A stretch of DNA of 64,000 bases from Melioribacteraceae bacterium (GCA_041675645.1 JBAYTN010000001.1:145061-209060), one strand, 5' to 3'. Counted from the first letter of the stretch, positions 5,988-43,742 are shown. Numbers and translations are program-made. Notes: generated by a model from the letters alone, not told the origin.

Positions 5988-6740
5988 TTATTTTAGAATA
6001 GTAATCACTTCGTTATGAATTGTTCCACCGGTAGCGATTATGCTGTTTCCGGTTTCGGCATTGCCTCCTTGGTAATCCGTAATAGCTCCTCCGGCTCCTC
6101 TAATTACCGGAATAACCGCCATAGAATCCCACACGCTCATAATCGGGTCTATCATAATATCCGCGTATCCGGTTGCAACAAGATAGTAGCCGTAACAGTC
6201 GCCCCACTGCCGGTAAACTTTTACTTGATGCATCAATTCTTCAAACTTTTTAATATTCTGGTACTTTTCAATGTGAATATGATCTGTGGTTAAGAGTGTG
6301 GCCGAAGCAATATCACTACATTCACGCACATGAACTTTAGTGCCGTTAAGCTCGGCTGTTTCGTTATCTCCAATTAAATACTCTTTAAGCACCGGCTGAT
6401 TAATTACACCTAGAATTGGTTTCCCGTTTTTCGTTAAGGCAATCAATGTTCCGAACGTAACAGTACCATGAATAAAACTCTTCGTTCCGTCGATAGGATC
6501 GAGAATCCATTTGTATTCCGCATTGGAATTATACTCACCGAATTCTTCACCCAGTATTCCATGTTCGGGAAAGCGCTTCATAATCATTTCCCGCATCATC
6601 TCTTCTGCTTTTTTATCGGCAATTGTAACGGGAGTTGAATCGGCTTTGTTATCGATAGAAAATTCTTTGCGCCAATATTGGTTAATTATTTTACCGCTCT
6701 CATCGGCAAGTAGTCTGCAAAAGTCTTTTAATTCGTTCAT
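5988..6740 (-). CDS. inositol monophosphatase family protein (HisN/SuhB-like phosphatase)
   Basis: IMPase signatures ILDPIDGTKSFIHG and WDSMAVIPVIRGAGGAITD. Confidence 0.8.
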   Translation of the reverse strand: MNELKDFCRLLADESGKIINQYWRKEFSIDNKADSTPVTIADKKAEEMMREMIMKRFPEHGILGEEFGEYNSNAEYKWILDPIDGTKSFIHGTVTFGTLIALTKNGKPILGVINQPVLKEYLIGDNETAELNGTKVHVRECSDIASATLLTTDHIHIEKYQNIKKFEELMHQVKVYRQWGDCYGYYLVATGYADIMIDPIMSVWDSMAVIPVIRGAGGAITDYQGGNAETGNSIIATGGTIHNEVITILK

Positions 6741-6894: not shown

Positions 6895-7857
6895 ATGAAT
6901 ACTTATAAAGCAAATAACGAAAGTGTGCTTAGTGCATCGGAGATTATTAAGTCGGGCGGACTTGTTGCATTCCCGACCGAAACCGTTTACGGTTTAGGGG
7001 CAGATGGATTAAACCCGATTGCCGTTGCAAAAATTTTCGAGGCTAAGAAGCGCCCTACTTTTAATCCTTTGATTCTTCACATAGCAGATAGAATCTGGTT
7101 AAAGAAACTCACTTCTATTGAAAATGGAAGAATTGAACAGTTAATAAATAGGTTTTGGCCGGGACCTTTAACACTTGTTCTTCCAAAGACAGAACTTGTA
7201 CCCGATATTGTTACTTCAGGCAATCCGACAGTTGCGGTTAGAATGCCTAATCATCCGGTAGCTCTCCAGTTAATTGAAATGAGCGAAAGACCAATTGCCG
7301 CACCGAGCGCAAACAAGTTCGGGCATCTTAGTCCAACCGAAGCAGTCCACGTTGCAAAATATCTTGGTGATAAAGTTGATATGATTCTTGACGGAGGCAA
7401 ATGCTCTGTTGGTTTGGAATCAACAATTGTACAGTTTTACAATGATGAGTTTTATTTACTCCGCCACGGCGGCTTATCTAAAGAAGATATTGAAAAAGAG
7501 ATCGGTGAGATTAAAATTGGAATCGTGGATGAAAACAAGCCAAACTCTCCGGGTCAGCTTCCATTTCATTATTCGCCCAACACTCCGCTAAAGTTTTTCA
7601 GTGAGAAACTTCTGGACACAAATAAAAAGATTGGTGTGTTGTTCTTCAAAGAAAATAAATATGAGTTCCCTTTTACGGATGCGCGTGTGCTTTCACCAAA
7701 CGGCAATCTCCGCGAAGCGGCCGCAAATTTATTTTCTTTTCTGCATGATCTCGAAAAAGAAAACCTCGATTTAATTCTTGTTGAGCCGATTGAAGAAAGG
7801 GGTTTGGGGCGGGCAATTATGGATAGACTTCGTAAAGCAACAAAACAGCACGATTAA
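6895..7857 (+). CDS. tsaC: L-threonylcarbamoyladenylate synthase (Sua5/YrdC family, long Sua5-type form)
   Basis: From the ATG at 6895 the protein reads MNTYKANNESVLSASEIIKSGGLVAFPTETVYGLGADGLNPIAVAKIFEAKKRPTFNPLILH..., the YrdC/Sua5 core, with a C-terminal Sua5 domain (321 aa). The 448-aa ORF in the track starts at 6511 and would overlap the convergent IMPase gene, so I trimmed it to this ATG. Confidence 0.8.
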   Translation: MNTYKANNESVLSASEIIKSGGLVAFPTETVYGLGADGLNPIAVAKIFEAKKRPTFNPLILHIADRIWLKKLTSIENGRIEQLINRFWPGPLTLVLPKTELVPDIVTSGNPTVAVRMPNHPVALQLIEMSERPIAAPSANKFGHLSPTEAVHVAKYLGDKVDMILDGGKCSVGLESTIVQFYNDEFYLLRHGGLSKEDIEKEIGEIKIGIVDENKPNSPGQLPFHYSPNTPLKFFSEKLLDTNKKIGVLFFKENKYEFPFTDARVLSPNGNLREAAANLFSFLHDLEKENLDLILVEPIEERGLGRAIMDRLRKATKQHD

Positions 7858-9226: not shown

Positions 9227-12200
9227 TTTATTCCTTTGATAGCTTCTTCTATAGCTTTATCCAATTGAGGATCTTTTTTCTCTAGTCTGTCTTTGAATGT
9301 TGTCTTAACGTAGATATCCGGCTTAACACCTTCAATCTCCAAATCCTTTCCATCAAGTGTATAACAGCCCCAAGATGGTAGTCTGTAGAAAGAACCATCA
9401 ACCAGACCTTTTCCGGAAGTAAAGATAATCCATCGGTAGCTTTCCGTACCAATAATTTTTCCAAGACCAAGCTGCTTAAATCCTTGCGATGTCATCTCTG
9501 CATCGCTTAGTGTTTGTTCGTTGATAAGAATAACTATTGGTTTGGCTGCCGGCGCAAAGTTAGGCTGAATTGTTAAAGCTCCGCCTCTGTATTTCCATTG
9601 CAAATAGGGGCGCTGACTTAGGAATTGAAGAACTGCATCGTGTACGTTACCGCCGGTGTTGAAACGAAGATCGTAAATCAATCCTTCTTTATAGTGAAAT
9701 TCATTCGTCATTTCAATCAAGAAATTCTCAAGTTCTCCGTCCCCCATGTTTTTCATGTGTACGTAAGCAATTTTGTTGTTCGATTTTTCATCAACATACT
9801 TTTGGTTTAGCTCAACCCACTCATCATACAAATTGGTTTTTAATTCGCCATAGCTTTGCGGATGAATCTTCACGTTCACATTCTCACTTCCCCGTTTTAA
9901 TCCAAGGGTAATTTCTTCCGGTTGAGAAGTTGTTAAGAAATATTTATTCCGGTTAGCTTCCTTGTTAACCATAGTTCCGTTAATAGAAACAAGCTCATCG
10001 CCCGGAAGAATTGCATTTCCTTTTTTCCATGCTGCAGAGCTCTTGAGAATTGATTTAACTTTGTACGGATTCTCATCATCAAATACGATTCCGGTTTCCA
10101 TAGACTCGGTTTTGTAGAATACTTTCTCTTCATCGCCGTTGGAGTTAAAGCCAAGATGAGAGGAGTTTAACTCACCGAGCATATCATTCAACAGCAAGCG
10201 CAAGTTGGCGCGAGATTTTACATAAGGCAAAAATGTTGAGTAATATTTTCCAAGTTTCTGCCAATCGGCTCCGTGGAATTTGTCATCATAAAAATTCTCT
10301 TCGAGGTTCGCCCAAGTTTCATAAAACATTTGATTGAATTCGGCGGAAAGATTTCTTGTGAACTTAGCTTCCGTTTCAACGGCGGTTAGTTTGCTTCCGG
10401 CTAAATCGATTTTATAAATTTTGCTGCCGGAGAGTAAATAATAATTGTCTTTCCCTTTGGTGATTTGATATCCGCTAACTTTAGCACCTTCAAACTTTTT
10501 TGTTTCCGGTTTATCAAAAGGTTTTAAAATTAACTGATAAAAATTATTTCCCTCTCCTTCATGATTAGAAGTAAATAGCAATCTTGTTTCATCCCCTTTT
10601 TGATAAATAAATGGCTGACCTTGCGATCCGCTAAGTTTAACAGTGCTTTCCCAGCGGTCTTTCAATCCAGCAAAATCAATTTCCACTTTTACTTTGGAGG
10701 AATCTTTCTTTTCGGGCAAAAACAACTTATCAAAACGGTCAGACTTAAATTCCCTATCAATTGGTTGAAGCGCTATTCTGTAAATATCATCATTTCGTGT
10801 TCCACGCGGATAACTTGGCGTTAATCTATCTGTTGAAAAATAAATGTATTTACCATCCGACGACCATGTTGGCGAACCTTCAGAAACTCCGGTCTTGGTA
10901 ATCTCGTAAGATTTTTCAGTTTTGAAATCGTAAGCAAAAATATCTGATTCAAAATTTCTCTGAGCTGTATAAGCTAAAAATCTATCGTCTGGAGAAAAGC
11001 TTGGATCGCCCGGATTGAGAGCCCAGAATTCATCCTTCACAATTGTTTTTGATTCCAGCGATTTTGAATCGAGAACCCGTAGCTCATTTCTTCCGCTGAA
11101 GTAAGCCACTTTACTTCTGTCGTTGCTAATTACAATTGATTGATTGTTCTGTTCATCTTTTGTCAATTGCTTCTTTTCACCTTTACCGTCAGCTTTAATT
11201 GTAAATAGATTTAACCAGCCGTTTACTGTTTGATTAAAAATGATTGTATCATTATTCAGCCAAAGAACTTCAATAATACGTTCAGCCGGATTTGTATTGA
11301 TCTGTTTTACAAACTTTCCTTCAACATCGGAAACAAACAACTCGCCTCTGGAAACAAACACAAATTTTTTTCCATCCGGCGAGGCGGCAAAATTAGTAAC
11401 CGCGCCTTTGGTATTGTACTCTTGTGAGTTAGTTAGTTTGTAATTACTTATTAACGAAACCGGAACTTTGTCAGACTTTCCAACTTTTACATCGTAAACA
11501 TAAAGCTGGTAATCTTTTTCGAAGACAACTTTTTCGCCATTAGCACTGACCTTCGGTTTCTTAATTGATGAATCAAATTTTGTGAGCTGTTTCTTCTTTC
11601 CATTTTCAAATGTAAAGAGGTTGTATTCGTCTGTTCCTTCGTCGCTGGCAAAGAATATCTTACTATTTTTATCAATTGACTGCCAAAAATCTTTGCCGTG
11701 ATAATCTGTAAGAAGTTTATATTCTTTTGTTGACGGGTTGTAATATTTTACATCGGGATTGAAATCACCTTTGTAGCGTTTTCTGTTCGCTTGGCTCCAG
11801 CTTTCCCAAGTATCGTTAAAGTAGAAGCCTTTGCTGATTGGATCTTCAATTAGGTTGTGTGGCCAGTTAAAAAAGTTATCGAATAATCGTACCGGCGTTT
11901 CTCCACCTAAACTAACTTTGAAAGCTGTTACAGAATTAAATCTATCTGAAGCGAAGTAAATAAATTTGGAATCCCACGACCACGATTCAACTAAATCATT
12001 TGAGCTGTGAAAAGTAAGTTGCTTGATCACTCCGCCTTGTACCGGAATTACATAAACATTGTTATTCCCATCTTGATTGCTAGTGAATGCAATCCATTTT
12101 CCATCCGGAGAATAAACCGGGCGGGTTTCATTCCCATCCATAGCTGTTAAGCGCAAAGCTTTTCCGCCATTAGAACCTACAGTCCATAAATCTCCCTCGT

Positions 12201-12318
12201 AAGAAAACACTATTGTATTAGCATCCGGAGAAAGTGCCGGATCGCTTAAAAAGTATTCTTGGGTTTGAGCATTAAGCTGTAAAAACAAAGCAAGAGAAAG
12301 CAGTATTACTTTTTTCAT
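9223..12318 (-). CDS. tricorn protease homologue (S41 family, beta-propeller + PDZ + C-terminal peptidase)
   Basis: 1031 aa with signal peptide. TolB-like WD40 repeats (YSPDGKWIAFTS, FSPDDRFLAYT) are followed by a PDZ-like region and a C-terminal S41 peptidase core. Size and architecture are typical of tricorn protease. Confidence 0.8.
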   Translation of the reverse strand: MKKVILLSLALFLQLNAQTQEYFLSDPALSPDANTIVFSYEGDLWTVGSNGGKALRLTAMDGNETRPVYSPDGKWIAFTSNQDGNNNVYVIPVQGGVIKQLTFHSSNDLVESWSWDSKFIYFASDRFNSVTAFKVSLGGETPVRLFDNFFNWPHNLIEDPISKGFYFNDTWESWSQANRKRYKGDFNPDVKYYNPSTKEYKLLTDYHGKDFWQSIDKNSKIFFASDEGTDEYNLFTFENGKKKQLTKFDSSIKKPKVSANGEKVVFEKDYQLYVYDVKVGKSDKVPVSLISNYKLTNSQEYNTKGAVTNFAASPDGKKFVFVSRGELFVSDVEGKFVKQINTNPAERIIEVLWLNNDTIIFNQTVNGWLNLFTIKADGKGEKKQLTKDEQNNQSIVISNDRSKVAYFSGRNELRVLDSKSLESKTIVKDEFWALNPGDPSFSPDDRFLAYTAQRNFESDIFAYDFKTEKSYEITKTGVSEGSPTWSSDGKYIYFSTDRLTPSYPRGTRNDDIYRIALQPIDREFKSDRFDKLFLPEKKDSSKVKVEIDFAGLKDRWESTVKLSGSQGQPFIYQKGDETRLLFTSNHEGEGNNFYQLILKPFDKPETKKFEGAKVSGYQITKGKDNYYLLSGSKIYKIDLAGSKLTAVETEAKFTRNLSAEFNQMFYETWANLEENFYDDKFHGADWQKLGKYYSTFLPYVKSRANLRLLLNDMLGELNSSHLGFNSNGDEEKVFYKTESMETGIVFDDENPYKVKSILKSSAAWKKGNAILPGDELVSINGTMVNKEANRNKYFLTTSQPEEITLGLKRGSENVNVKIHPQSYGELKTNLYDEWVELNQKYVDEKSNNKIAYVHMKNMGDGELENFLIEMTNEFHYKEGLIYDLRFNTGGNVHDAVLQFLSQRPYLQWKYRGGALTIQPNFAPAAKPIVILINEQTLSDAEMTSQGFKQLGLGKIIGTESYRWIIFTSGKGLVDGSFYRLPSWGCYTLDGKDLEIEGVKPDIYVKTTFKDRLEKKDPQLDKAIEEAIKGIK

Positions 12319-12698
12319 ATGCGGCCTTCAGTTTAAATTTACGGTTGTGAATCTATCTTATTTCTTTCAATTAAGAAATGAAAAATTCTTTGTAATTTTT
12401 GAACAACAAATTTTAGTGCGAATGCAAAACCATAACAACTTCTCAAAACAAGCATGTTCGTGCGGAAACGATAAATCAAGTTCACAAATTCAGCATACGT
12501 GTGAGTACTCGGGTTTCGGGCAAATTCTCTATTGGATTGGAATTAGCGCGATTCCGGTACGTGTAAATTTTATTTGTTCTAAGTGCGGGGAAGTTGTCGA
12601 ATCGACCAATGACCCTAACATATTAAAGCAATTCGTGGGTCGTTAAGAACAAAATTATAAATCATTTATTCATTGAATAAATATTAATCGGAGGCTGT

Positions 12699-13889
12699 AT
12701 GCCCAACCAAATGATTCTAGAAAAGATTGAACAAGCCGTAAAAATTCTTGAAGAAAAAAATATTGATATGTGGATGACTTACGTTCGCGAAACCGGAAAC
12801 ATGAAAGACCCGATGCTGGATATGATTGTTGGAACCGGCGCTACATGGCAATCCGCATTCATAATTACGAAAAGCGGCAACACGCACGCTGTAATAGGCT
12901 CTCTTGAATATGAAAACATGAAAACAGTTGGAACATACAAAAACATTCACCCTTACCTAAAGTTTGTAAAGGATGATCTTCTTAAAGTTTTGGATATGTA
13001 TAAGCCAAAGAAAATCGCTATTAATTACTCTCGTAACTCCACGCTAGCAGATGGCTTACCGCATGGATTATACCTCGAACTTTTGGATCATCTTAAAGAT
13101 ACTCCTTATTCACATGCTTTAGTTTCATCTGAAGAGATAGTTGCTGCGCTTAAAGGAAGAAAATCTGCTAGCGAATTAGCCAATATGAAAGAAGCTATCA
13201 ATGAAACTCTCAAAATCTTTGGAGAAGTAACTAAGTTTCTTAAAGCTGGCGTAACGGAAAAACAAGTAGCCGATTTTGTGCTTGATCTAGTAAAACAGCG
13301 CGGATTCGAAACCGCTTGGGATGTTGAACATTGTCCGGCTGTTTTTTCCGGTCCAGATACAGCCGGTGCGCATTCCGGTCCAACCGATAGAGTTGTTCAA
13401 TATGGACACGTTGTAAATATGGATTTCGGTATTAAGATTAATGGCTATTGTGCCGATCTGCAGCGTACTTGGTACATTTGCCATCCGCACGAAGATAAAG
13501 CTCCGATGGAAGTTCAGCGCGGATTCGATGTAATTGTAGAATCAATTTCCAAAGCAGCTGCCGAATTAAAACCGGGCAAACAAGGCTGGGAAATTGATCA
13601 GGCCGCTCGTCACTATATTCAAGTAAAAGGATATGATGAGTATCCGCATGGCCTCGGTCATCAAGTTGGAAGATTTGCACACGATGGTGGCTGTCTGCTT
13701 GGACCAAAATGGGAACGTTATAACAATTCTCCCTATCTGCAAGTAGAAGAAGGAAACATATTTACACTTGAGCCGCGTTTGACAGTAAAGGAATATGGAA
13801 TAGCAACAGTTGAAGAAGAAGTATTAATAACTAAAGACGGCTGCGAGTTTCTTTCTGAAAGACAGAAAGAGCTTTATTTGATTAAATAG
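12699..13889 (+). CDS. M24 family metallopeptidase (Xaa-Pro aminopeptidase/prolidase-like)
   Basis: Creatinase-like N-terminal domain and M24 core with the HGLGHQVG metal-binding segment. Confidence 0.8.
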   Translation: MPNQMILEKIEQAVKILEEKNIDMWMTYVRETGNMKDPMLDMIVGTGATWQSAFIITKSGNTHAVIGSLEYENMKTVGTYKNIHPYLKFVKDDLLKVLDMYKPKKIAINYSRNSTLADGLPHGLYLELLDHLKDTPYSHALVSSEEIVAALKGRKSASELANMKEAINETLKIFGEVTKFLKAGVTEKQVADFVLDLVKQRGFETAWDVEHCPAVFSGPDTAGAHSGPTDRVVQYGHVVNMDFGIKINGYCADLQRTWYICHPHEDKAPMEVQRGFDVIVESISKAAAELKPGKQGWEIDQAARHYIQVKGYDEYPHGLGHQVGRFAHDGGCLLGPKWERYNNSPYLQVEEGNIFTLEPRLTVKEYGIATVEEEVLITKDGCEFLSERQKELYLIK

Positions 13890-37444: not shown

Positions 37445-39829
37445 ATGAAGCGATTCTTTTCTTCTCTGATTCTTCTTCTTACAATAATTACAACACAAAG
37501 CTTCTCGCAGGCTGATCCAGTTATTCAAAAAATAATTGAGATTGGTAAAACAGATAACCAAACAATGCGCCATTTGGACATTCTTTGTAACCGCATAGGC
37601 GGCAGACCAATCGGTTCCGATGCTTACACAAACGCCGCAAATTGGGTTCTTGGAGAATTTAAGAAATGGGGCATTAAAGCAGAGTTAGATGAATCGGGAG
37701 AACTTCCGGTTGGTTTTAACCGCGGAGCTTGGTTTGGCAAGATGATCAAGCCAAAAGAAATGCATTTGGAATTTGGTACCCCGGCATTTACAGCCGGAAC
37801 AAAAGGTGTTCAGCGCGGTCACGTAATTATTATGCCCAACACCTATGCAAAGTTTGATTCACTAAAAAATAAAATAAAAGGCGCTTGGATTTTAGTAGAC
37901 GGAATTAATGAAGGCTGGCCACGGGATCGTGACTCTGTTTCTTCTCTAACTACTAAGTTGATTGCTGCCGGCGCTCTTGGAACAATTCAGTTATCTAAAC
38001 TTCCTATTCGTCTTCTTGATGCGCGGTATGTTAAATCATGGAATAATTTGCCAATGCTTCCGGATATTAAATTGCTCGACACACAATTCAACGAAATAAA
38101 ATCATCCGTTGAAAAAGGTGAAGAAGTAATTCTCGAATTTGATATCCGGAATTTTTTCAAACAAGGTCCGATCAAATATCATAATGTAATTGGAATTATT
38201 CCCGGCACAGAATTTCCGAACGAGTATGTTGTTCTTGGTGCACATTTGGATTCATACGATTTTGCGACCGGTGCTGTTGATAACGGTTCCGGTGTAACGC
38301 CAATGATGGAAGCAATGAGAATGCTTGTTCTCTCCGGCGCAAAACCGAAACGTTCAATCATGATTCAAATTTATGCCGGTGAAGAAAGAGGTTTACTAGG
38401 TTCAAAATCTTGGGTAGCAAAAAACCAAAAACTGCTTCCTAAAATTTCTGTAATGCTGAATAAGGATTTTGGGACAAATCCTATAGTTGGAATTGGAGTT
38501 CCTAAAGTTATGATGGAACAAACGAAAACTGTTGTTGAGCCAATACTAAACGCCGGATTAAAATATCCATTCAAACTAAATGAAACCGGTCCATTTAGAA
38601 AAGCCGGACGCGGCGGAACCGATAGTCATTCATTTTTGATGGAAGGAGTTCCAACTCCTCGCTTAAATTCCGAAGGTCCGCATCAATATGGAAGAACATG
38701 GCATACGCTTTACGATACTTACAACGAAGTGATTCCCGATGCGCAAGAAGATGCGGCTGTAAAAATAGCTTTGCTTGCTTATGGCTTTGCTAATCTTGAT
38801 GAACTCCTTCCGCGAGAAGGCGCATTTGTTCCCGATGGAATTTATGCTGATATAAGCACCGCATCAAAAGGAAGAATTACGCTTGCGCTTGATTATGAAC
38901 ATGCACCTATGACTGTTGCCAACTTTATTGGTTTGGCTGAAGGAACAATAAAGAATGAAGCAATCGTTGAAGGAAAACCATATTACTCTAATGTTGTTTG
39001 GCATCGGGTTGTAGATGGGCACGTAATACAAGCCGGAATGCCGAATACCGGAAAAGAAACCGAAGGCCCCGGATATGAATTTCCAAATGAAATTTATAAC
39101 GGCTTCTCACATAATAAAGCCGGTATGCTTGGTATGGCGAACTCTGGTCCTAATACCAACGGAAGTCAATTCTACATTACACTTGCCGACCGTTCCTATT
39201 TGGATGGCAACTACACTTTATTCGGTTGGGTAACAGAAGGAATGGATGTAGTAAATAAGATTGCTCAAGGAGATACAATTAAAAGCATTACAATTACGCG
39301 CATCGGTGAAAAAGCAAATGCATTTAAAGTAACAAACGATTCATTTACTAAAATGGTTGACGAAGCTAAAGCCAAAGTTAAACTTGCTGATGAACAAAGA
39401 GTTAAAACCGAAGCTCAACTGGTTGCGAATAATTACTCGAATGCCGTAACAACCGCGAGCGGTTTGAAATATATAATAAAAAAAGAAGGCTCCGGAGAAA
39501 AACCCGCTGCTGGATCAATAGTAAAAGCGAAATACACCGGTAAGCTATTAATCAACGGAACCGAGTTTGTAAGTACTAGTGTAGAAGGAAAGGCTAACAC
39601 AATTGAGACGCCGGAAATTTTTGATTACGAAGTTGGTAAAACGAAAATTAACCACGGTGTTGATGAAGCATTAGCAGATATGAAACCGGGCGAAGTTCGT
39701 TTAGTAGTTGTGCCCTCCAATCTGGCATTTGGAACAAGCGGATTTTACGGCAAATCAATTTCGGGCAAAAAACGTTTTGTGATTTCTCCAAACACTAGTT
39801 TGGTTTATGAAATTGAAGTATTGCAATAA
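37445..39829 (+). CDS. secreted tri-domain protein: M28 family peptidase (PA domain) + cyclophilin-type PPIase + FKBP-type PPIase
   Basis: Signal peptide MKRFFSSLILLLTIITTQSFSQA. M28 zinc-ligand regions (HLDSYDFATGAVDNGSG, AGEERGLLGS). Cyclophilin core (VVWHRVVDGHVIQAGMP...GPNTNGSQFYITLAD...GWVTEGMDVV). C-terminal FKBP domain (GLKYIIKKEGSGEKPAAGSIVKAKYTGKLLINGTEF...RLVVVPSNLAFG). Confidence 0.75.
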   Translation: MKRFFSSLILLLTIITTQSFSQADPVIQKIIEIGKTDNQTMRHLDILCNRIGGRPIGSDAYTNAANWVLGEFKKWGIKAELDESGELPVGFNRGAWFGKMIKPKEMHLEFGTPAFTAGTKGVQRGHVIIMPNTYAKFDSLKNKIKGAWILVDGINEGWPRDRDSVSSLTTKLIAAGALGTIQLSKLPIRLLDARYVKSWNNLPMLPDIKLLDTQFNEIKSSVEKGEEVILEFDIRNFFKQGPIKYHNVIGIIPGTEFPNEYVVLGAHLDSYDFATGAVDNGSGVTPMMEAMRMLVLSGAKPKRSIMIQIYAGEERGLLGSKSWVAKNQKLLPKISVMLNKDFGTNPIVGIGVPKVMMEQTKTVVEPILNAGLKYPFKLNETGPFRKAGRGGTDSHSFLMEGVPTPRLNSEGPHQYGRTWHTLYDTYNEVIPDAQEDAAVKIALLAYGFANLDELLPREGAFVPDGIYADISTASKGRITLALDYEHAPMTVANFIGLAEGTIKNEAIVEGKPYYSNVVWHRVVDGHVIQAGMPNTGKETEGPGYEFPNEIYNGFSHNKAGMLGMANSGPNTNGSQFYITLADRSYLDGNYTLFGWVTEGMDVVNKIAQGDTIKSITITRIGEKANAFKVTNDSFTKMVDEAKAKVKLADEQRVKTEAQLVANNYSNAVTTASGLKYIIKKEGSGEKPAAGSIVKAKYTGKLLINGTEFVSTSVEGKANTIETPEIFDYEVGKTKINHGVDEALADMKPGEVRLVVVPSNLAFGTSGFYGKSISGKKRFVISPNTSLVYEIEVLQ

Positions 39830-39865
39830 TCTTTATAGGAAATTAAGTCGTTGAATGTTCAAAAT

Positions 39866-39889
39866 ATTTCCCGGACACGTCCGGGAAAT
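39866..39889 (+). terminator. hairpin downstream of the M28-PPIase gene
   Basis: Perfect palindrome atttcccggac-ac-gtccgggaaat. Confidence 0.5.
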
Positions 39890-39924
39890 TGTTTATAAGA
39901 AAGAGAATTTTAGGGTAATCAATC

Positions 39925-41055
39925 ATGAGTATAGAAATTACCTCAAATAAAGAATATAAGAATTGGCTTGCCGGGCTAAAGACTAAAGTCCGCACCGCTC
40001 AGCTAAAGGCTGCTGTTAGAGTAAACAAAGAACTCCTCACTCTTTATTGGGAACTGGGTGCAGACATCATATCAAAACAGTCTGAAACTAAGTGGGGTGA
40101 TAAATTTCTTCAGCAATTGAGTAAAGATTTGGCGGAAGAATTCCCGGAGATAAAAGGTTTTTCCGAGAGAAATCTGAAGTATATCCGGCAATGGTATAGT
40201 TTTTACGCATCAACCACCAACGCATTTGGGCAACAACCTGTTGCCCAAATAGCAAAACAACTTGTTTTGCAATCGCCTACGGTATCAAATAGCCAACAGA
40301 CTGTTGACTTAATTAGTCAGCAAGCTGTTCCCCTAATTACCCAAATCCCATGGGGTCATAACATTGCAATCATCGCAAAATGCAAGAATATTGAGGAGGC
40401 GCTTTTCTATATTCAAAATACTATCGAGCATGGGTGGAGCCGCAGTGTTCTAATTCATCAGATAGAGAGCGGTTTATTCCGGCGAGAAGGAAGTTCTGTG
40501 AATAACTTTGCCCTCACACTTCCGGCTCCGCAATCCGACCTTGCAAAGCAAACAATTAAAGATCCGTATGTTTTCGATTTTCTTAGCATGACCAAAGATT
40601 ATAACGAGCGGGATTTGGAATCCGCGCTTGTTGAACATTTAACTCACTTCCTTTTGGAACTCGGTGCCGGGTTTGCATACTTGGGAAGACAAATACAAAT
40701 TAATGTTGGAGAGAGGGAATTCTTTCTCGATCTTCTCTTCTACCATACGCGGCTTCATTGCTATGTTGTGGTGGAACTTAAAACCGGAGAATTTGAACCG
40801 GAGTTTGCCGGTAAACTTAATTTTTATATCAAAGCGGTAGATAAAAAATTTAGAAATGAGAGAGACCAGCCGACAATTGGCATTCTGCTCTGTAAGAAAA
40901 AAGATAGACTTGTTGCAGAGTACGCTCTTAGCGATATACATAAACCAATTGGTGTTTCCGAATATCAGTTAACGCAATCTTTGCCGGATAATTTAAAGCC
41001 AAGCTTGCCAAGTATTGAAGAAATTGAAAGAGAATTTGATGCGGAGAGACAATGA
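39925..41055 (+). CDS. YhcG/DUF1016 family PD-(D/E)xK nuclease domain protein
   Basis: 376 aa. The N-terminal DUF1016 region (KNWLAGLKTKVRTAQLKAAVRVNKELLTLYWELGADI...GFSERNLKYIRQWY) and the C-terminal PDDEXK core (FFLDLLFYHTRLHCYVVVELKTGEF) are typical of YhcG-like proteins. Confidence 0.75.
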   Translation: MSIEITSNKEYKNWLAGLKTKVRTAQLKAAVRVNKELLTLYWELGADIISKQSETKWGDKFLQQLSKDLAEEFPEIKGFSERNLKYIRQWYSFYASTTNAFGQQPVAQIAKQLVLQSPTVSNSQQTVDLISQQAVPLITQIPWGHNIAIIAKCKNIEEALFYIQNTIEHGWSRSVLIHQIESGLFRREGSSVNNFALTLPAPQSDLAKQTIKDPYVFDFLSMTKDYNERDLESALVEHLTHFLLELGAGFAYLGRQIQINVGEREFFLDLLFYHTRLHCYVVVELKTGEFEPEFAGKLNFYIKAVDKKFRNERDQPTIGILLCKKKDRLVAEYALSDIHKPIGVSEYQLTQSLPDNLKPSLPSIEEIEREFDAERQ

Positions 41056-41059
41056 GTAA

Positions 41060-41170
41060 CAGAAATTTGGGTTCTCATGGTTTTGTGACAAATTGATTGA
41101 ACGTAAAAAACGTTTTGTTATTTCTCCGAACACAAGTTTGGTTTATGAAATAGAAGTGCTTGAAAAAAAG
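41060..41170 (+). pseudogene. displaced 3'-end remnant (about 30 codons) homologous to the end of the M28-PPIase gene
   Basis: In frame it reads ...KFGFSWFCDKLIERKKRFVISPNTSLVYEIEVLEKK*. The intact gene 1.3 kb upstream ends ...AFGTSGFYGKSISGKKRFVISPNTSLVYEIEVLQ*. The last 18 residues are identical at protein level and differ by silent changes at DNA level. Confidence 0.7.
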
Positions 41171-41330
41171 TAAGACTATGCTTTCGGCTATCAGCGTTCG
41201 GCTTTCGGAGAAACATCTTTACTGATAACTGAATGCTGGTCGCAATGATAAATTGATTAACAAATATTGCATAGTTATTACCACTGTTTGAAAATTGAGT
41301 TGCATATTAATAGCTTATTGGAATAATCCG

Positions 41331-41942
41331 ATGAAAAAATCACGAACAAAGATCCCCAAAAAGATTGCCGACGAAGTGGCTTATCAATCTGATATGGTTT
41401 GTGCAGTATGTGAAACGCCAGGGGATCATATACACCACATTGACGGCAATCCATCAAATAACGATTCGGACAACTTGATTCTATTATGTTTCAGACATCA
41501 TAGTTCTGCTAGCACTAAAGGTAATTTATCTCGTAAGTTATCAAAGGGTATACTGATGCGTTATCGTGAACAGCATTATAAACGAGTCGCACAGAAGCGA
41601 TACCTTCCACCCATTCAGAAAAACCCAAAAGTTCATGAACATATTTCCGAAGGAATCTTCTTTCAACTCACAATGGATGCTTTGGTTTGTATAGAAGTAG
41701 AAAAAATACGAAGGAATTTGAGGCGTCATAATTGGCCTTTAATTCAAAAACACATTTATGACTTGAATGCATTTCCGGCAGAAATAGGTCCACGTGCACG
41801 AAATGCAATTCTTTGTGCACTCGATGATATAAGCTCCAGCACTCGTCATCGTATGCCCCTACTGTTGCTCAGGCTATTCAACACATCGCCTCAAATATAC
41901 TTCCAGAACGTAGTCGTTCGACTCATAGACATGAAAAGTTGA
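41331..41942 (+). CDS. HNH endonuclease domain protein with uncharacterised C-terminal domain
   Basis: The N-terminus carries a canonical HNH zinc-finger nuclease motif: CAVCE...HIHHIDGNPSNNDSDNLILLCFRHH. The C-terminal ~130 aa are unassigned. ATG 41331 is preferred over the TTG at 41295. Confidence 0.65.
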   Translation: MKKSRTKIPKKIADEVAYQSDMVCAVCETPGDHIHHIDGNPSNNDSDNLILLCFRHHSSASTKGNLSRKLSKGILMRYREQHYKRVAQKRYLPPIQKNPKVHEHISEGIFFQLTMDALVCIEVEKIRRNLRRHNWPLIQKHIYDLNAFPAEIGPRARNAILCALDDISSSTRHRMPLLLLRLFNTSPQIYFQNVVVRLIDMKS

Positions 41943-42262
41943 GCGCTATCGAAAAACAAATGCTGCACACAGGAATTGCTATCAGCTTTGATATGGCTTA
42001 TGATGCTGTTCGGTACCTCGGGAAAATAAGGATCGCTGATGAAGGTGCACAAATATTATGGCAAATCCTCTGTTTTGCTAATCGCAATAAGGTTAATGAT
42101 ATTACAAAACTTGCCAGCTCAGAATTCAGTCGTTTAGAAGAAACAGCTCAAAAAATTGGAGACAAATATTCTGCTATGCTTTTCAATTTGTATCATAAAC
42201 ATGGTTTGTCGGGGGATTATCATTTCCCGGATTATCCTGATGAGCTTGCTGAGAGGCTTTAG
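41939..42262 (+). CDS. hypothetical 107-aa protein co-transcribed with the HNH gene (candidate partner/immunity-like protein)
   Basis: Its ATG overlaps the HNH gene's stop by 4 nt (ATGA). Composition is alpha-helical. I recognised no family. Confidence 0.45.
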   Translation: MSAIEKQMLHTGIAISFDMAYDAVRYLGKIRIADEGAQILWQILCFANRNKVNDITKLASSEFSRLEETAQKIGDKYSAMLFNLYHKHGLSGDYHFPDYPDELAERL

Positions 42263-42478
42263 GATATTTGTAAAACAATTTCACATAAAAAACACAACTA
42301 AATATTAGTTTAATTATATCTACTATTTTTTCTGGAAAAGAAATAATCCATTTTTCCATATTCATAGTCTATTTCTCTGACTGTCGAAGATCATTCCTAA
42401 TAAGAAAGACAATTAAGCATGTCGTGTTAGCTATCTGTGCTCAGCTTTCAGAGAAACATTTTTTACTGATAGCTAAAT

Positions 42479-42501
42479 GCTGACGGCTGATTGCCGTCAG
42501 C
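42479..42501 (-). terminator. hairpin immediately downstream of trhO
   Basis: gctgacgg-ctgattg-ccgtcagc abuts the trhO stop codon. Confidence 0.4.
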
Positions 42502-43385
42502 TATTCATCATACTTTTTTCTTCTGTTATCCGACGCGCGGCATTCATCAGAACAGCAATAATCATTTTCAATTTTGCATTCCTGGCAAGTAACAAGCAGC
42601 TCATCACAATTTTGGTTGTGGCAGTTAATGTAATATGATGCCGGCGTTCCGCAGAAATAACATTTTCCAATATGTTTTGTTTCTTCGTTTTTGTTTGGAG
42701 TGATGACTCTCCGCTCATCAAAGACAAACATACTTCCTTCCCAATATTTATCGGGATGCTGGTTTATGTAATTCCAGATGCCGCCATTCATTTGGTAAAC
42801 ATCTTTGAATCCTTGCTCTACCAAATAGGCGCTTGCCTTCTCGCAGCGGATTCCTCCCGTGCAGTAAGTAACTACAGTTTTGTTTTTGTAGTCAGAAATA
42901 TCTTCGGCTACTTTAACCCAATCGCGGAACGTTTTCATTTCCGGAGTTACCGCATTCTTAAATTTTCCAATAACACTTTCGTAATCGTTGCGCGCATCAA
43001 TAATTAAAAACTCTTTGCCGGATTCATAAAACTCGTTGAGCATTTCCGGCGCCAAATACTTACCGGTTTTGGAAAGATCAACTTCACCAAAACTCGCGTT
43101 TACAATTTCTTTCTTCAGCCGCACATGAATTTTTCTGAATGCGTGCTCTGTGTGTTCATCTTCTTTAAACCAAATATCGGCAAACTGAGGATAGCTTCTT
43201 ATCTCATTTTTGAATGCTTCTATATTCTCAACCTTGCCGGAGACTGTCGCATTAATCCCCTCATCAGAAATCCAAACACGTCCTTTGATATCGTGATTCT
43301 GGCAAAACTTGAGATGATCTTGAACAAACTTTTCCGGCTCGGGAAAGCCGATGTATTTATAAAAAAGTAAAACCCGGTAATCCAT
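42501..43385 (-). CDS. trhO: rhodanese-domain tRNA U34 hydroxylase TrhO/YceA-like (UPF0176)
   Basis: Start set at ATG 43385 (MDYRVLLFYKYIGF... the conserved UPF0176 N-terminus). Rhodanese active-site segment YCTGGIRCEKASAYL. C-terminal Cys cluster CYFCG...CHNQNCDELLVTCQEC. Confidence 0.7.
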   Translation of the reverse strand: MDYRVLLFYKYIGFPEPEKFVQDHLKFCQNHDIKGRVWISDEGINATVSGKVENIEAFKNEIRSYPQFADIWFKEDEHTEHAFRKIHVRLKKEIVNASFGEVDLSKTGKYLAPEMLNEFYESGKEFLIIDARNDYESVIGKFKNAVTPEMKTFRDWVKVAEDISDYKNKTVVTYCTGGIRCEKASAYLVEQGFKDVYQMNGGIWNYINQHPDKYWEGSMFVFDERRVITPNKNEETKHIGKCYFCGTPASYYINCHNQNCDELLVTCQECKIENDYCCSDECRASDNRRKKYDE

Positions 43386-43448
43386 ATTCTTCCTTTCTTG
43401 CAGCATTGCTCTTATATTTGAACGCAAAAATAGCAAATAGGAGTTTAA

Positions 43449-43742
43449 ATGAGACATTTCATCGTAGAAATTATTTACAAGGCGCCGATTGAGAAAATTG
43501 AGGAATTAACCCCTATTCACAGAGAATTTTTACAAACGGGCTATAAAGCGGGAATGCTGCTTGTTTCGGGACCCAAAGTGCCGCGTACCGGCGGAATTGT
43601 AATTGCCAAAGCAAAATCTATGGAAGAGTTAGCAGAGTTTTTTAAGAACGATCCTTACGCTGTGAACTATGCCGCTGATTACAGCTTTATAGAGTTCAAC
43701 CCGAAAAGCCATCAGAAGATTCTGAAAGACTGGTTGGAATAA
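43449..43742 (+). CDS. YciI-like protein
   Basis: 97 aa: MRHFIVEIIYKAPIEKIEELTPIHREFLQ...GMLLVSGP...GGIVIAKAKSMEELAEFFKNDPY fits the YciI family pattern. Confidence 0.6.
   Translation: MRHFIVEIIYKAPIEKIEELTPIHREFLQTGYKAGMLLVSGPKVPRTGGIVIAKAKSMEELAEFFKNDPYAVNYAADYSFIEFNPKSHQKILKDWLE

Follow-up and report, generated by a model that had tools for sequence, protein, structure and literature searches.

How a lone nuclease gene comes to sit behind an intact conserved gene, between two copies of that gene's own end and with no recombinase gene nearby, is the question raised by a 64,000-nucleotide (nt) stretch of DNA from a Melioribacteraceae bacterium (GCA_041675645.1 JBAYTN010000001.1:145061-209060), the whole of which is referred to here as the window. 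Its source is an Ignavibacteria metagenome-assembled genome near Stygiobacter and Melioribacter. The conserved gene encodes an M28 peptidase fused to a cyclophilin and an FKBP domain (hereafter M28 or M28-PPIase), and the lone gene encodes a protein of the YhcG/DUF1016 family. The original prediction, made from this sequence alone, was that the YhcG gene is foreign DNA integrated at the 3' end of the M28 gene. With a probability of roughly 0.55, we read the insert as an integrase-less single-gene cassette, moved by homologous recombination with the duplicated gene end serving as a homology arm. The elements concerned are given below; L-numbered loci are the relatives and the YhcG loci compared, and the fetched loci total 1 Mb.

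37445-39829, + strand: the target gene, an intact M28 peptidase-cyclophilin-FKBP fusion of 794 residues (open reading frame, ORF; Pfam Peptidase_M28, Pro_isomerase and FKBP_C; orthologues in 31 genomes).
39743-39819, + strand: direct-repeat copy A, the final ~26 codons of the target gene, the native allele (repeat finder; 99% identity to the gene end of L115).
39820-39865, + strand: the cassette-associated left flank, made up of the last three codons and stop (ATTGCAATAA) plus ~36 nt, a tail common to the cassette-bearing L006, L056 and L004.
39866-39889, + strand: a palindrome or hairpin with arms of 10-11 base pairs (bp), ATTTCCCGGAC-AC-GTCCGGGAAAT, conserved, and marking the 5' edge of the portable cassette.
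39925-41055, + strand: the YhcG/DUF1016 protein, 376 residues, with an N-terminal helical DUF1016_N domain and a predicted C-terminal PD-(D/E)xK nuclease domain (Pfam, PADLOC).
41052-41080, + strand: the cassette trailer, ATGAGTAACAGAAATTTGGGTTCTCATGG, also found in L004, L006, L007 and L027.
41081-41173, + strand: direct-repeat copy B, the fossil of a relative's M28 gene end, ~30 codons and a stop, non-coding here (repeat, alignment, translation).

The M28-PPIase protein ends with ...GKKRFVISPNTSLVYEIEVLQ before its stop codon, while positions 41060-41173 translate as QKFGFSWFCDKLIERKKRFVISPNTSLVYEIEVLEKK followed by a stop. The predicted second copy of the gene end beyond YhcG is indeed present. 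An independent repeat finder returns 39743-39819 and 41081-41157 as a 77-nt direct repeat (82% identical) with a core of 53 nt that is 92.5% identical, and BLAST reports the A/B pair with 78.7 bits (E = 1.3e-18) against a 95th percentile of 25 bits for a cross-locus null. The repeat is therefore neither of low complexity nor a chance match, and an objection that had been anticipated together with the claim is excluded. The same structure is present in two independent assemblies of the source organism, and homologous structures are found in five other genomes; because it recurs in independent assemblies, the arrangement is not an assembly artefact. The beginnings of the two copies (39736-39770 and 41081-41115) also form a weak 35-nt inverted repeat, 71% complementary, probably a side effect of the A/T-rich composition of the repeat.

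Comparison with relatives places the insert in a variable spot between M28 and a convergent core gene:

42501-43457, - strand: trhO (UPF0176 rhodanese family), the right-hand core gene and the right border of the variable spot (Pfam; synteny in relatives).

The empty site that the original prediction proposed to look for exists. In the closest relatives, L114 and L116, whose M28 proteins are 96% and 89% identical to that of the window, M28 is followed directly by trhO, and in L114 (92.6% identical in M28 nucleotide sequence) the M28 stop, a 61-nt hairpin and trhO succeed one another. The spot is empty in L024 and L031 as well, and L115 also has no cassette. Elsewhere it holds a serpin gene alone (L003, L005), YhcG with copy B and the serpin (L004, L006, L007, L027), or a Bro-N/DinD-like gene with a 273-nt copy of the M28 end and the serpin (L008), and further relatives carry bigger inserts. 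Conserved flanks, variable content and the lack of mobility genes thus characterize a core-gene-flanked variable hotspot. At the nucleotide level the cassettes of L004, L006 and L027 are 87-89% identical to that of the window, with M28 genes that reach only ~79%; a relative whose M28 gene is at 92.6% has no cassette. This patchy distribution, together with a cassette more similar than its flanks, indicates horizontal exchange, and the acquisition proposed from the window alone is borne out by the empty sites, by these identities and by the occurrence of the cassette in three other contexts (see below). The YhcG gene, and an HNH pair located downstream, have been added horizontally and recently to a core region that is conserved in other respects. 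The insertion in L008, a 70%-identical relative, is an independent event with other cargo and another repeat length: an 85%-identical, 273-nt duplicate of the last 88 M28 codons (12113-12384 and 13507-13778) flanks the Bro-N/DinD-like gene (12620-13450).

The gene end of L115, a close relative without the cassette, is 99% identical to copy A but just 82% identical to copy B. The nearest sequence to copy B is copy B of L027 (86%), and both carry the B-specific signature GAAATAGAAGT. Because of its identity to the L115 gene end, copy A is the native allele, and copy B, because of the signature common with L027 and of a right junction common to five genomes, is the fossil of another species' allele, brought in with the cassette. 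This reverses the original prediction, in which the host's own end had been displaced to the far side. Nor is there support for a replacement 3' end brought by the insert, as had been supposed: what moves together with the cassette is just the final three codons and the stop (TTGCAATAA), and the rest of copy A, upstream of them, is the native allele. Neither L114 nor L115, the closest relatives, has that tail, their genes ending with ...GTAATACAAAATAATTAA and ...GTAATCAAGAACAATTAA, and the left recombination joint lies at or near 39819/39820, at the very end of the A homology. Copy B is out of frame with YhcG; in other genomes it has suffered a 1-nt deletion (L006), a premature stop (L007) and indels (L008), and it is not preserved as coding sequence. 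A translated extension of YhcG into copy B was ruled out on the different frame and on the frameshifts and stops of L006, L007 and L008.

The right junction, ..TAACAGAAATTTTGG.., is common to five other genomes with YhcG and copy B, and ..ATGAGTAACAGAAATTTTGG.. followed by gene-end homology is found in all cassette-bearing genomes. One common right junction implies that the A/cassette/B structure arose once. This bears on homology-facilitated illegitimate recombination (HFIR), a one-sided capture that would operate anew at each interspecies transfer, with an anchor in the upstream gene and an illegitimate join at the far end, leaving the recipient's own gene end as copy B. Such capture is documented in naturally transformable bacteria, according to the passage of PMC2884548 that cites de Vries & Wackernagel 2002 and Prudhomme et al. 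2002, which counts in its favour. It would fit the allelic look of the A/B divergence, the truncation of copy B at a junction with little or no homology, and the hypervariable downstream DNA that often offers no right-hand homologous crossover. However, copy B of the window is not the recipient's allele, and one identical junction in five species means that no fresh illegitimate join was made at each transfer; moreover, HFIR typically deletes recipient DNA and does not duplicate it. As a process acting at every transfer HFIR is unlikely, but it could explain the single founding event.

The divergence between the copies points in the direction of homologous recombination. Over 25 aligned codons, copies A and B of the window differ by eight synonymous and six non-synonymous changes (Sd = 8, Nd = 6, pN/pS = 0.20), every non-synonymous change being located within the 5' third of the repeat, and the six silent differences listed originally (GTG/GTT, CCA/CCG, ACT/ACA, ATT/ATA, GTA/GTG, TTG/CTT) are all visible in the alignment. 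Pooling nine independent repeat pairs yields Sd = 71, Nd = 31 and pN/pS = 0.116 (0.29 for the L008 pair), and if B had decayed neutrally following an in-situ duplication, non-synonymous differences as few as these would have a probability of 2e-14. The pattern of two alleles under purifying selection, first noticed in the window, therefore holds and generalizes. It suggests that the two copies diverged mostly as functional alleles in separate genomes, or that B was repeatedly refreshed from A, and either route involves homologous recombination. That A is native and B a donor allele would explain why the differences in the window are mainly silent. Inside L027 (204 nt, 99%), L006 and L007, the copies are near-identical and have genome-specific substitutions in common, which indicates that they recombine or convert each other.

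Gene-3'-end integrative elements and the integrase-less cis-mobilizable elements (CIMEs) are known from ICESt1 and ICESt3 in fda and from SCCmec in rlmH/orfX; a CIME is mobilized in trans by the integrase of a related integrative and conjugative element (ICE) in the same host. By analogy, A and B could be attL and attR of a site-specific integration at the M28 3' end, the integrase being lost or acting in trans. Like these elements, the insert occupies the 3' end of a conserved gene that it leaves intact, is bracketed by gene-end direct repeats and varies in presence among relatives, and its two stacked cassettes resemble tandem accretion at an att site. However, the Pfam annotation of ±10 kb contains no integrase, recombinase or transposase, so that the remnants which the original prediction suggested seeking were not found there, and none could fit because the non-coding gaps at the locus are at most 275 nt (ORF list). 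Unlike in ICEs, CIMEs and SCCmec, the cargo is a single gene, and the repeats are long, diverged and context-specific: their length ranges from 29 to 273 nt and their identity from 74 to 100% over the contexts, and contexts of the same cassette have no core in common. The repeat segments differ between the stacked cassettes, being the gene end in the case of YhcG and a terminator in that of the HNH pair, and the ends are imprecise, since the trailer carries a relic of a former neighbour's start codon. Lastly, the palindrome has no exact match in viral contigs, on which ground its candidacy as a phage-borne site was also rejected. Site-specific integration is thus distinctly improbable, and the analogy with integrase-driven, gene-3'-targeting islands that had been drawn initially is not supported.

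Other classes of mobile elements do not match the locus any better. A transposon would be at odds with the lack of a transposase, with the lack of terminal inverted repeats beyond the weak 35-nt pair (71%), and with a duplication of long and variable length. As compared with an integron cassette, the sole conserved palindrome is located 5' of the ORF and there is no integrase; the Rfam scan of 39600-42700 is likewise empty, reporting just two sub-threshold chance matches and no known RNA family. A homing endonuclease gene would agree with the nuclease domain, yet a 77-nt duplication flanks the insert. The GC content, 0.36-0.43 over the cassette and its flanks, exhibits no anomaly and is uninformative on foreignness.

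The portable unit would comprise the palindrome with the leader, the YhcG gene and the short trailer, and would be bounded on the right by the fossil copy B. The palindrome has the consensus TTTCCGAGAC-N3-GTCTCGGAAA, from which the window copy departs by two compensatory pair changes. It is located 27-64 nt 5' of every YhcG gene at least 78% identical to that of the window, and nowhere else in the 1 Mb of fetched loci or in the window. Four contexts are represented: after M28, in the hsdM/hsdS interval (L035), after a gene for a xanthine-dehydrogenase-type FAD subunit (L036), and after a GIY-YIG/DUF4357 gene (L037). Three of these contexts show a duplication of the target on either side of the palindrome-bearing unit, 77-204 nt, 48 nt and 73 nt in length. 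The palindrome scores as terminator-like, with a centroid hairpin energy of -14.5 kcal/mol, and may serve as a terminator-like insulator or as an operator. At the other end, the trailer begins with ATGAGT, its ATGA being the overlap with the YhcG stop. L035 and L040, two loci of the order hsdM-YhcG-hsdS, have the hsdS start overlapped by the YhcG stop, as ...cgATGAGTG..., and in L036 the trailer is shortened to ATGAGT. The trailer is probably what remains of the beginning of an hsdS gene that once followed; since ATGAGT is the overlapped hsdS start in L035 and L040, the cassette probably originates from a type I restriction operon.

Regarding the cargo, its initial assignment as a PD-(D/E)xK nuclease gene agrees with the results below. 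The Pfam domains DUF1016_N and YhcG_C are reported with 137.9 and 224.6 bits, far above their gathering cut-offs of 32.8 and 32.5 (E = 7e-67 and 3e-40), and the protein matches PADLOC family PDC-S02 (E = 4e-156), which is a candidate defence family only. Residues D269, E284 and K286 are invariant among 36 homologues; a D ... E-x-K catalytic motif has been described for the YhcG family (PMC1189080). The AlphaFold2 model is of low confidence (pLDDT 61), and Foldseek analysis with this weak model reports weak matches, all of them PD-(D/E)xK nucleases (e.g. NucS/EndoMS, MGME1 and Cas4), and nothing for the N-terminal domain. A search of solved structures by YhcG sequence returned none at E <= 1, and NCBIfam names neither YhcG nor the HNH protein nor the 107-residue ORF that accompanies the latter. 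YhcG is probably a defence-type or addiction-type DNA nuclease whose predicted catalytic residues are intact. In L007 (11761-12790) the YhcG gene is a pseudogene split into two fragments, the flanking repeat being nonetheless 94% identical, and in L006 (12382-13590) the YhcG ORF is open upstream as far as the M28 stop (402 residues).

With such a cargo, the cassette might be self-mobile, YhcG and likewise the HNH protein driving their own insertion through wide staggered nicks or breaks at gene ends, the repair of which duplicates 30-270 bp of the target, or through homing-like cleavage of empty alleles that promotes copying of the cassette. The predicted catalytic residues are intact, the adjacent cassette also encodes a nuclease, the conserved palindrome stands exactly at the left edge of the portable unit, the three relocations within the subfamily all carry new target duplications, and the YhcG family is very widespread, with homologues still 64-70% identical across phyla. 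The situation also recalls free-standing homing endonuclease genes, being a single nuclease gene beside a conserved gene with a patchy horizontal distribution. Against this stand the Bro-N/DinD-like cargo, which displays the same architecture with no recognized nuclease domain, the lack of terminal inverted repeats and of a fixed duplication length, and the majority of YhcG loci, which have no repeats. In addition, mainly silent A/B differences misfit a duplication identical at birth and decaying afterwards, and homing endonuclease genes are not known to duplicate their target, as happens here. Self-mobility of the nuclease cassette is rather improbable.

Homologous recombination between duplicated ends can also be considered against the wider distribution of the architecture. 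Among 72 distinct YhcG loci with enough flank, and with a threshold of at least 37 bits, 23, or about a third, and in unrelated genomes, have a flanking direct repeat (30-214 nt, 73-100% identical); control ORFs have one in 10 of 150 cases, several of which are cargo genes of similar spots in their own right, two Bro-N genes among them. Copy A ends on the stop codon of the upstream gene, often hsdM, in at least 11 loci. Four extra contigs provided one tandem-cassette locus (L123), one weak case and two loci without repeat, and none of the four plasmid YhcG loci, including the hsdM-hsdS-YhcG-hsdR locus of P. avellanae, has flanking repeats. The repeat-flanked architecture is thus frequent, not universal. 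Genes of the DUF1016, RhuM/DinD and GIY-YIG families have been reported as embedded in type I restriction-modification operons, with DUF1016 and RhuM/DinD enriched (Milman et al. 2023, PMC9881135). Our literature search, with most subscription journals outside its scope, found no account in which DUF1016 or embedded genes have duplicated gene ends on their flanks.

In the hsdM-YhcG-hsdS loci, the repeat covers the hsdS start codon and the first 1-4 codons, YhcG and hsdS start identically, and copy B is located immediately 5' of the hypervariable hsdS. This same coupled start might mean that the duplication arose, or was kept, for gene expression, as the terminator or ribosome-binding context of the next gene, the cassette being a passive passenger of the hotspot; the repeats of L027 and L007, which take in the whole terminator region, would agree with this. 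However, copy B of the window precedes no gene that needs it and is decaying at its 5' end, and repeats are also found after housekeeping genes and in intergenic DNA (L036, L037). As a full explanation gene expression is very improbable, and it is compatible with homologous recombination, not exclusive of it.

Three of the surveyed loci display variations of the architecture. L123 (2300-5413) harbours two tandem YhcG genes, ~31% identical, flanked and separated by three copies of a 130-190-nt non-coding repeat (87-95%). In L045, a 159-nt repeat (6086-6244 and 7216-7374) on either side of a Bro-N gene is a duplication of the start of the gene that follows, and its upstream copy terminates with a stop; this 5'-end duplication mirrors the 3'-end duplications of the other loci. 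In L092, the spacer between the YhcG stop and copy B (1309-1413) contains REP-like nested palindromes (gttcccacg...cgtgggaac), and a small ORF (1305-1631) that begins at the YhcG stop, takes in copy B and reaches the hsdS start could be translated, preserving translational coupling.

Under the favoured reading, homologous recombination would have acted in three steps. The A/cassette/B structure would have arisen once in a related Ignavibacteria lineage, through an insertion that duplicated the gene end and originally its terminator, the cassette itself being derived from a type I restriction operon. The block would then have spread between species by ordinary homologous recombination, with copy A and the gene body as the left arm and the built-in copy B, with or without the duplicated terminator, as the right arm. 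If copy B is the right arm, a recipient needs to have only the upstream gene in common, and not the hypervariable downstream DNA. Finally, recombination between A and B would delete the cassette and restore the empty site, while gene conversion would homogenize the copies in some genomes. The HNH gene and its small ORF would be stacked likewise, between two copies of the terminator region. Homologous recombination would account for the lack of a recombinase, for repeats that are variable and diverged, for differences of an allelic kind, for the one common junction, for where the left joint lies, for the occurrence of empty sites, and for the preference for positions upstream of hypervariable DNA.

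Several points weigh against this reading. The recombination event was never seen directly, and the right-hand crossover of the window is not locatable, the HNH cassette following copy B. The model does not explain how the duplication originates at a non-homologous target, and all three relocations in the palindrome-bearing subfamily (3/3) show a duplication; these could point to a target-duplicating insertion mechanism, whether nuclease-assisted, replication-based or HFIR-like. In operons, copy B could be kept for the hsdS ribosome-binding site and translational coupling. About two thirds of the YhcG loci, including all four plasmid loci and two of the four extra contigs, have no detectable repeat, and most loci come from metagenome assemblies.

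Known systems share parts of this architecture. Some defence hotspots are flanked by core genes and devoid of mobility genes, an example being the core defence hotspots of Pseudomonas aeruginosa; these are thought to exchange their content via homologous recombination in the flanks. The M28-trhO spot resembles them in its variable content between core genes (empty, serpin, YhcG, Bro-N, HNH, others) and its lack of recombinase genes, but its cassettes are each delimited by duplicated flank pieces, which would allow transfer with homology to one gene. In Campbell-type integration of circles by homologous recombination, and in IS26-like translocatable units, direct copies of a shared segment also flank the insert, which can be lost by recombination between them or stacked in tandem. 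In contrast to these units, the locus has no transposase or insertion sequence (IS), it is part of a host gene that makes up the shared segment, and no circular form was seen. PrrC-type guards are accessory genes in type I restriction-modification operons. The locus shares with such operon-embedded genes the same cargo families, YhcG relatives between hsdM and hsdS and, in the window, the hsdS-like start relic. Unlike them, the window YhcG is solitary, outside a restriction operon, and has its own leader and palindrome. The locus can be classed as a core-gene-flanked variable spot or as an att-like gene-end duplication, and the recurrent architecture deserves a systematic survey.

Extending this, it is possible, though doubtful, that YhcG/DUF1016, Bro-N/DinD-like and some HNH genes make up a widespread and undescribed class of minimal mobile cassettes. 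Their insertion sites would be conserved gene ends or operon junctions (typically hsdM|hsdS), where a duplicate comprising 30-270 bp of the gene end would act as built-in arm with no need of integrase or transposase, and the nuclease might break empty alleles or create the duplication. It is common for a variable spot to contain defence genes and lack mobility genes, and the movement of such contents is largely unexplained. With both arms inside one gene, a cassette could cross into genomes whose downstream DNA is unrelated, as with the hypervariable hsdS or a variable hotspot. If general, the mechanism would explain the frequent DUF1016 and DinD/RhuM-type genes in type I restriction operons and the spread of a very widespread uncharacterized nuclease family across phyla. 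It would also explain the short gene-end 'pseudogene' fragments near accessory genes, which would provide annotators with a signature of horizontally acquired cassettes.

Between copy B and trhO, the window contains a second cassette and two terminator repeats:

41163-41238, + strand: 'Down' element copy 1, which duplicates the hairpin native to the M28/trhO interval, a bidirectional terminator region (fold z = -3.0).
41331-42262, + strand: the second cassette, made up of an HNH-motif protein (203 residues, 41331-41942) and an overlapping 107-residue ORF (41939-42262), both found as ORFs.
42406-42500, + strand: 'Down' element copy 2 with the terminal hairpin, the native intergenic region abutting the trhO 3' end (fold z ~ -2.8 to -3.0, both strands).

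The complete layout is therefore the M28 gene with copy A; the leader and palindrome, YhcG and the trailer; copy B and terminator copy 1; the HNH gene and the 107-residue ORF; terminator copy 2; and trhO on the minus strand. Segments 41163-41238 and 42406-42482 form a second direct repeat, with blocks of 71% and 90% identity, that starts where the A/B repeat ends. The 'Down' element is homologous to the intergenic region of the L116 empty site and to the trhO-adjacent region of L003 and L004. Two cassettes are thus stacked, each bracketed by duplicated pieces of the original site. The HNH protein has a weak Pfam match with HNH_3, weak matches with ZorE-type HNH models in PADLOC, and a match with HNH PHROGs, while the 107-residue ORF returned no family match. 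The HNH cassette is absent from all relatives examined except identical assemblies. A third, decayed copy of the M28 gene end was sought at 42263-42420 and rejected, as local and semi-global alignments to four gene-end alleles score under the 95th percentile of shuffles.

The HNH pair takes the place that a serpin lipoprotein gene (407-421 residues) occupies between M28/YhcG and trhO in most of the close relatives, namely L003-L008 (e.g. L003 12633-13871), and terminator-like copies flank the serpin gene in relatives as well. In the M28-trhO spot of several relatives, a promoter-like element of ~45 nt, AAATTGATTGACAAAGCTAAATCTCTTCTCTAACTTTCT, is repeated before successive cargo genes. It is found in L009 (14575-14619/15695-15739), L015 (4978-5055/6837-6914), L016 (19881-19988/20901-21008), L038 (1-44/1418-1461) and L039 (5861-5921/7407-7468), and in a degenerate form in the window at ~41247-41290. 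This element could be a shared promoter as well as a recombination substrate.

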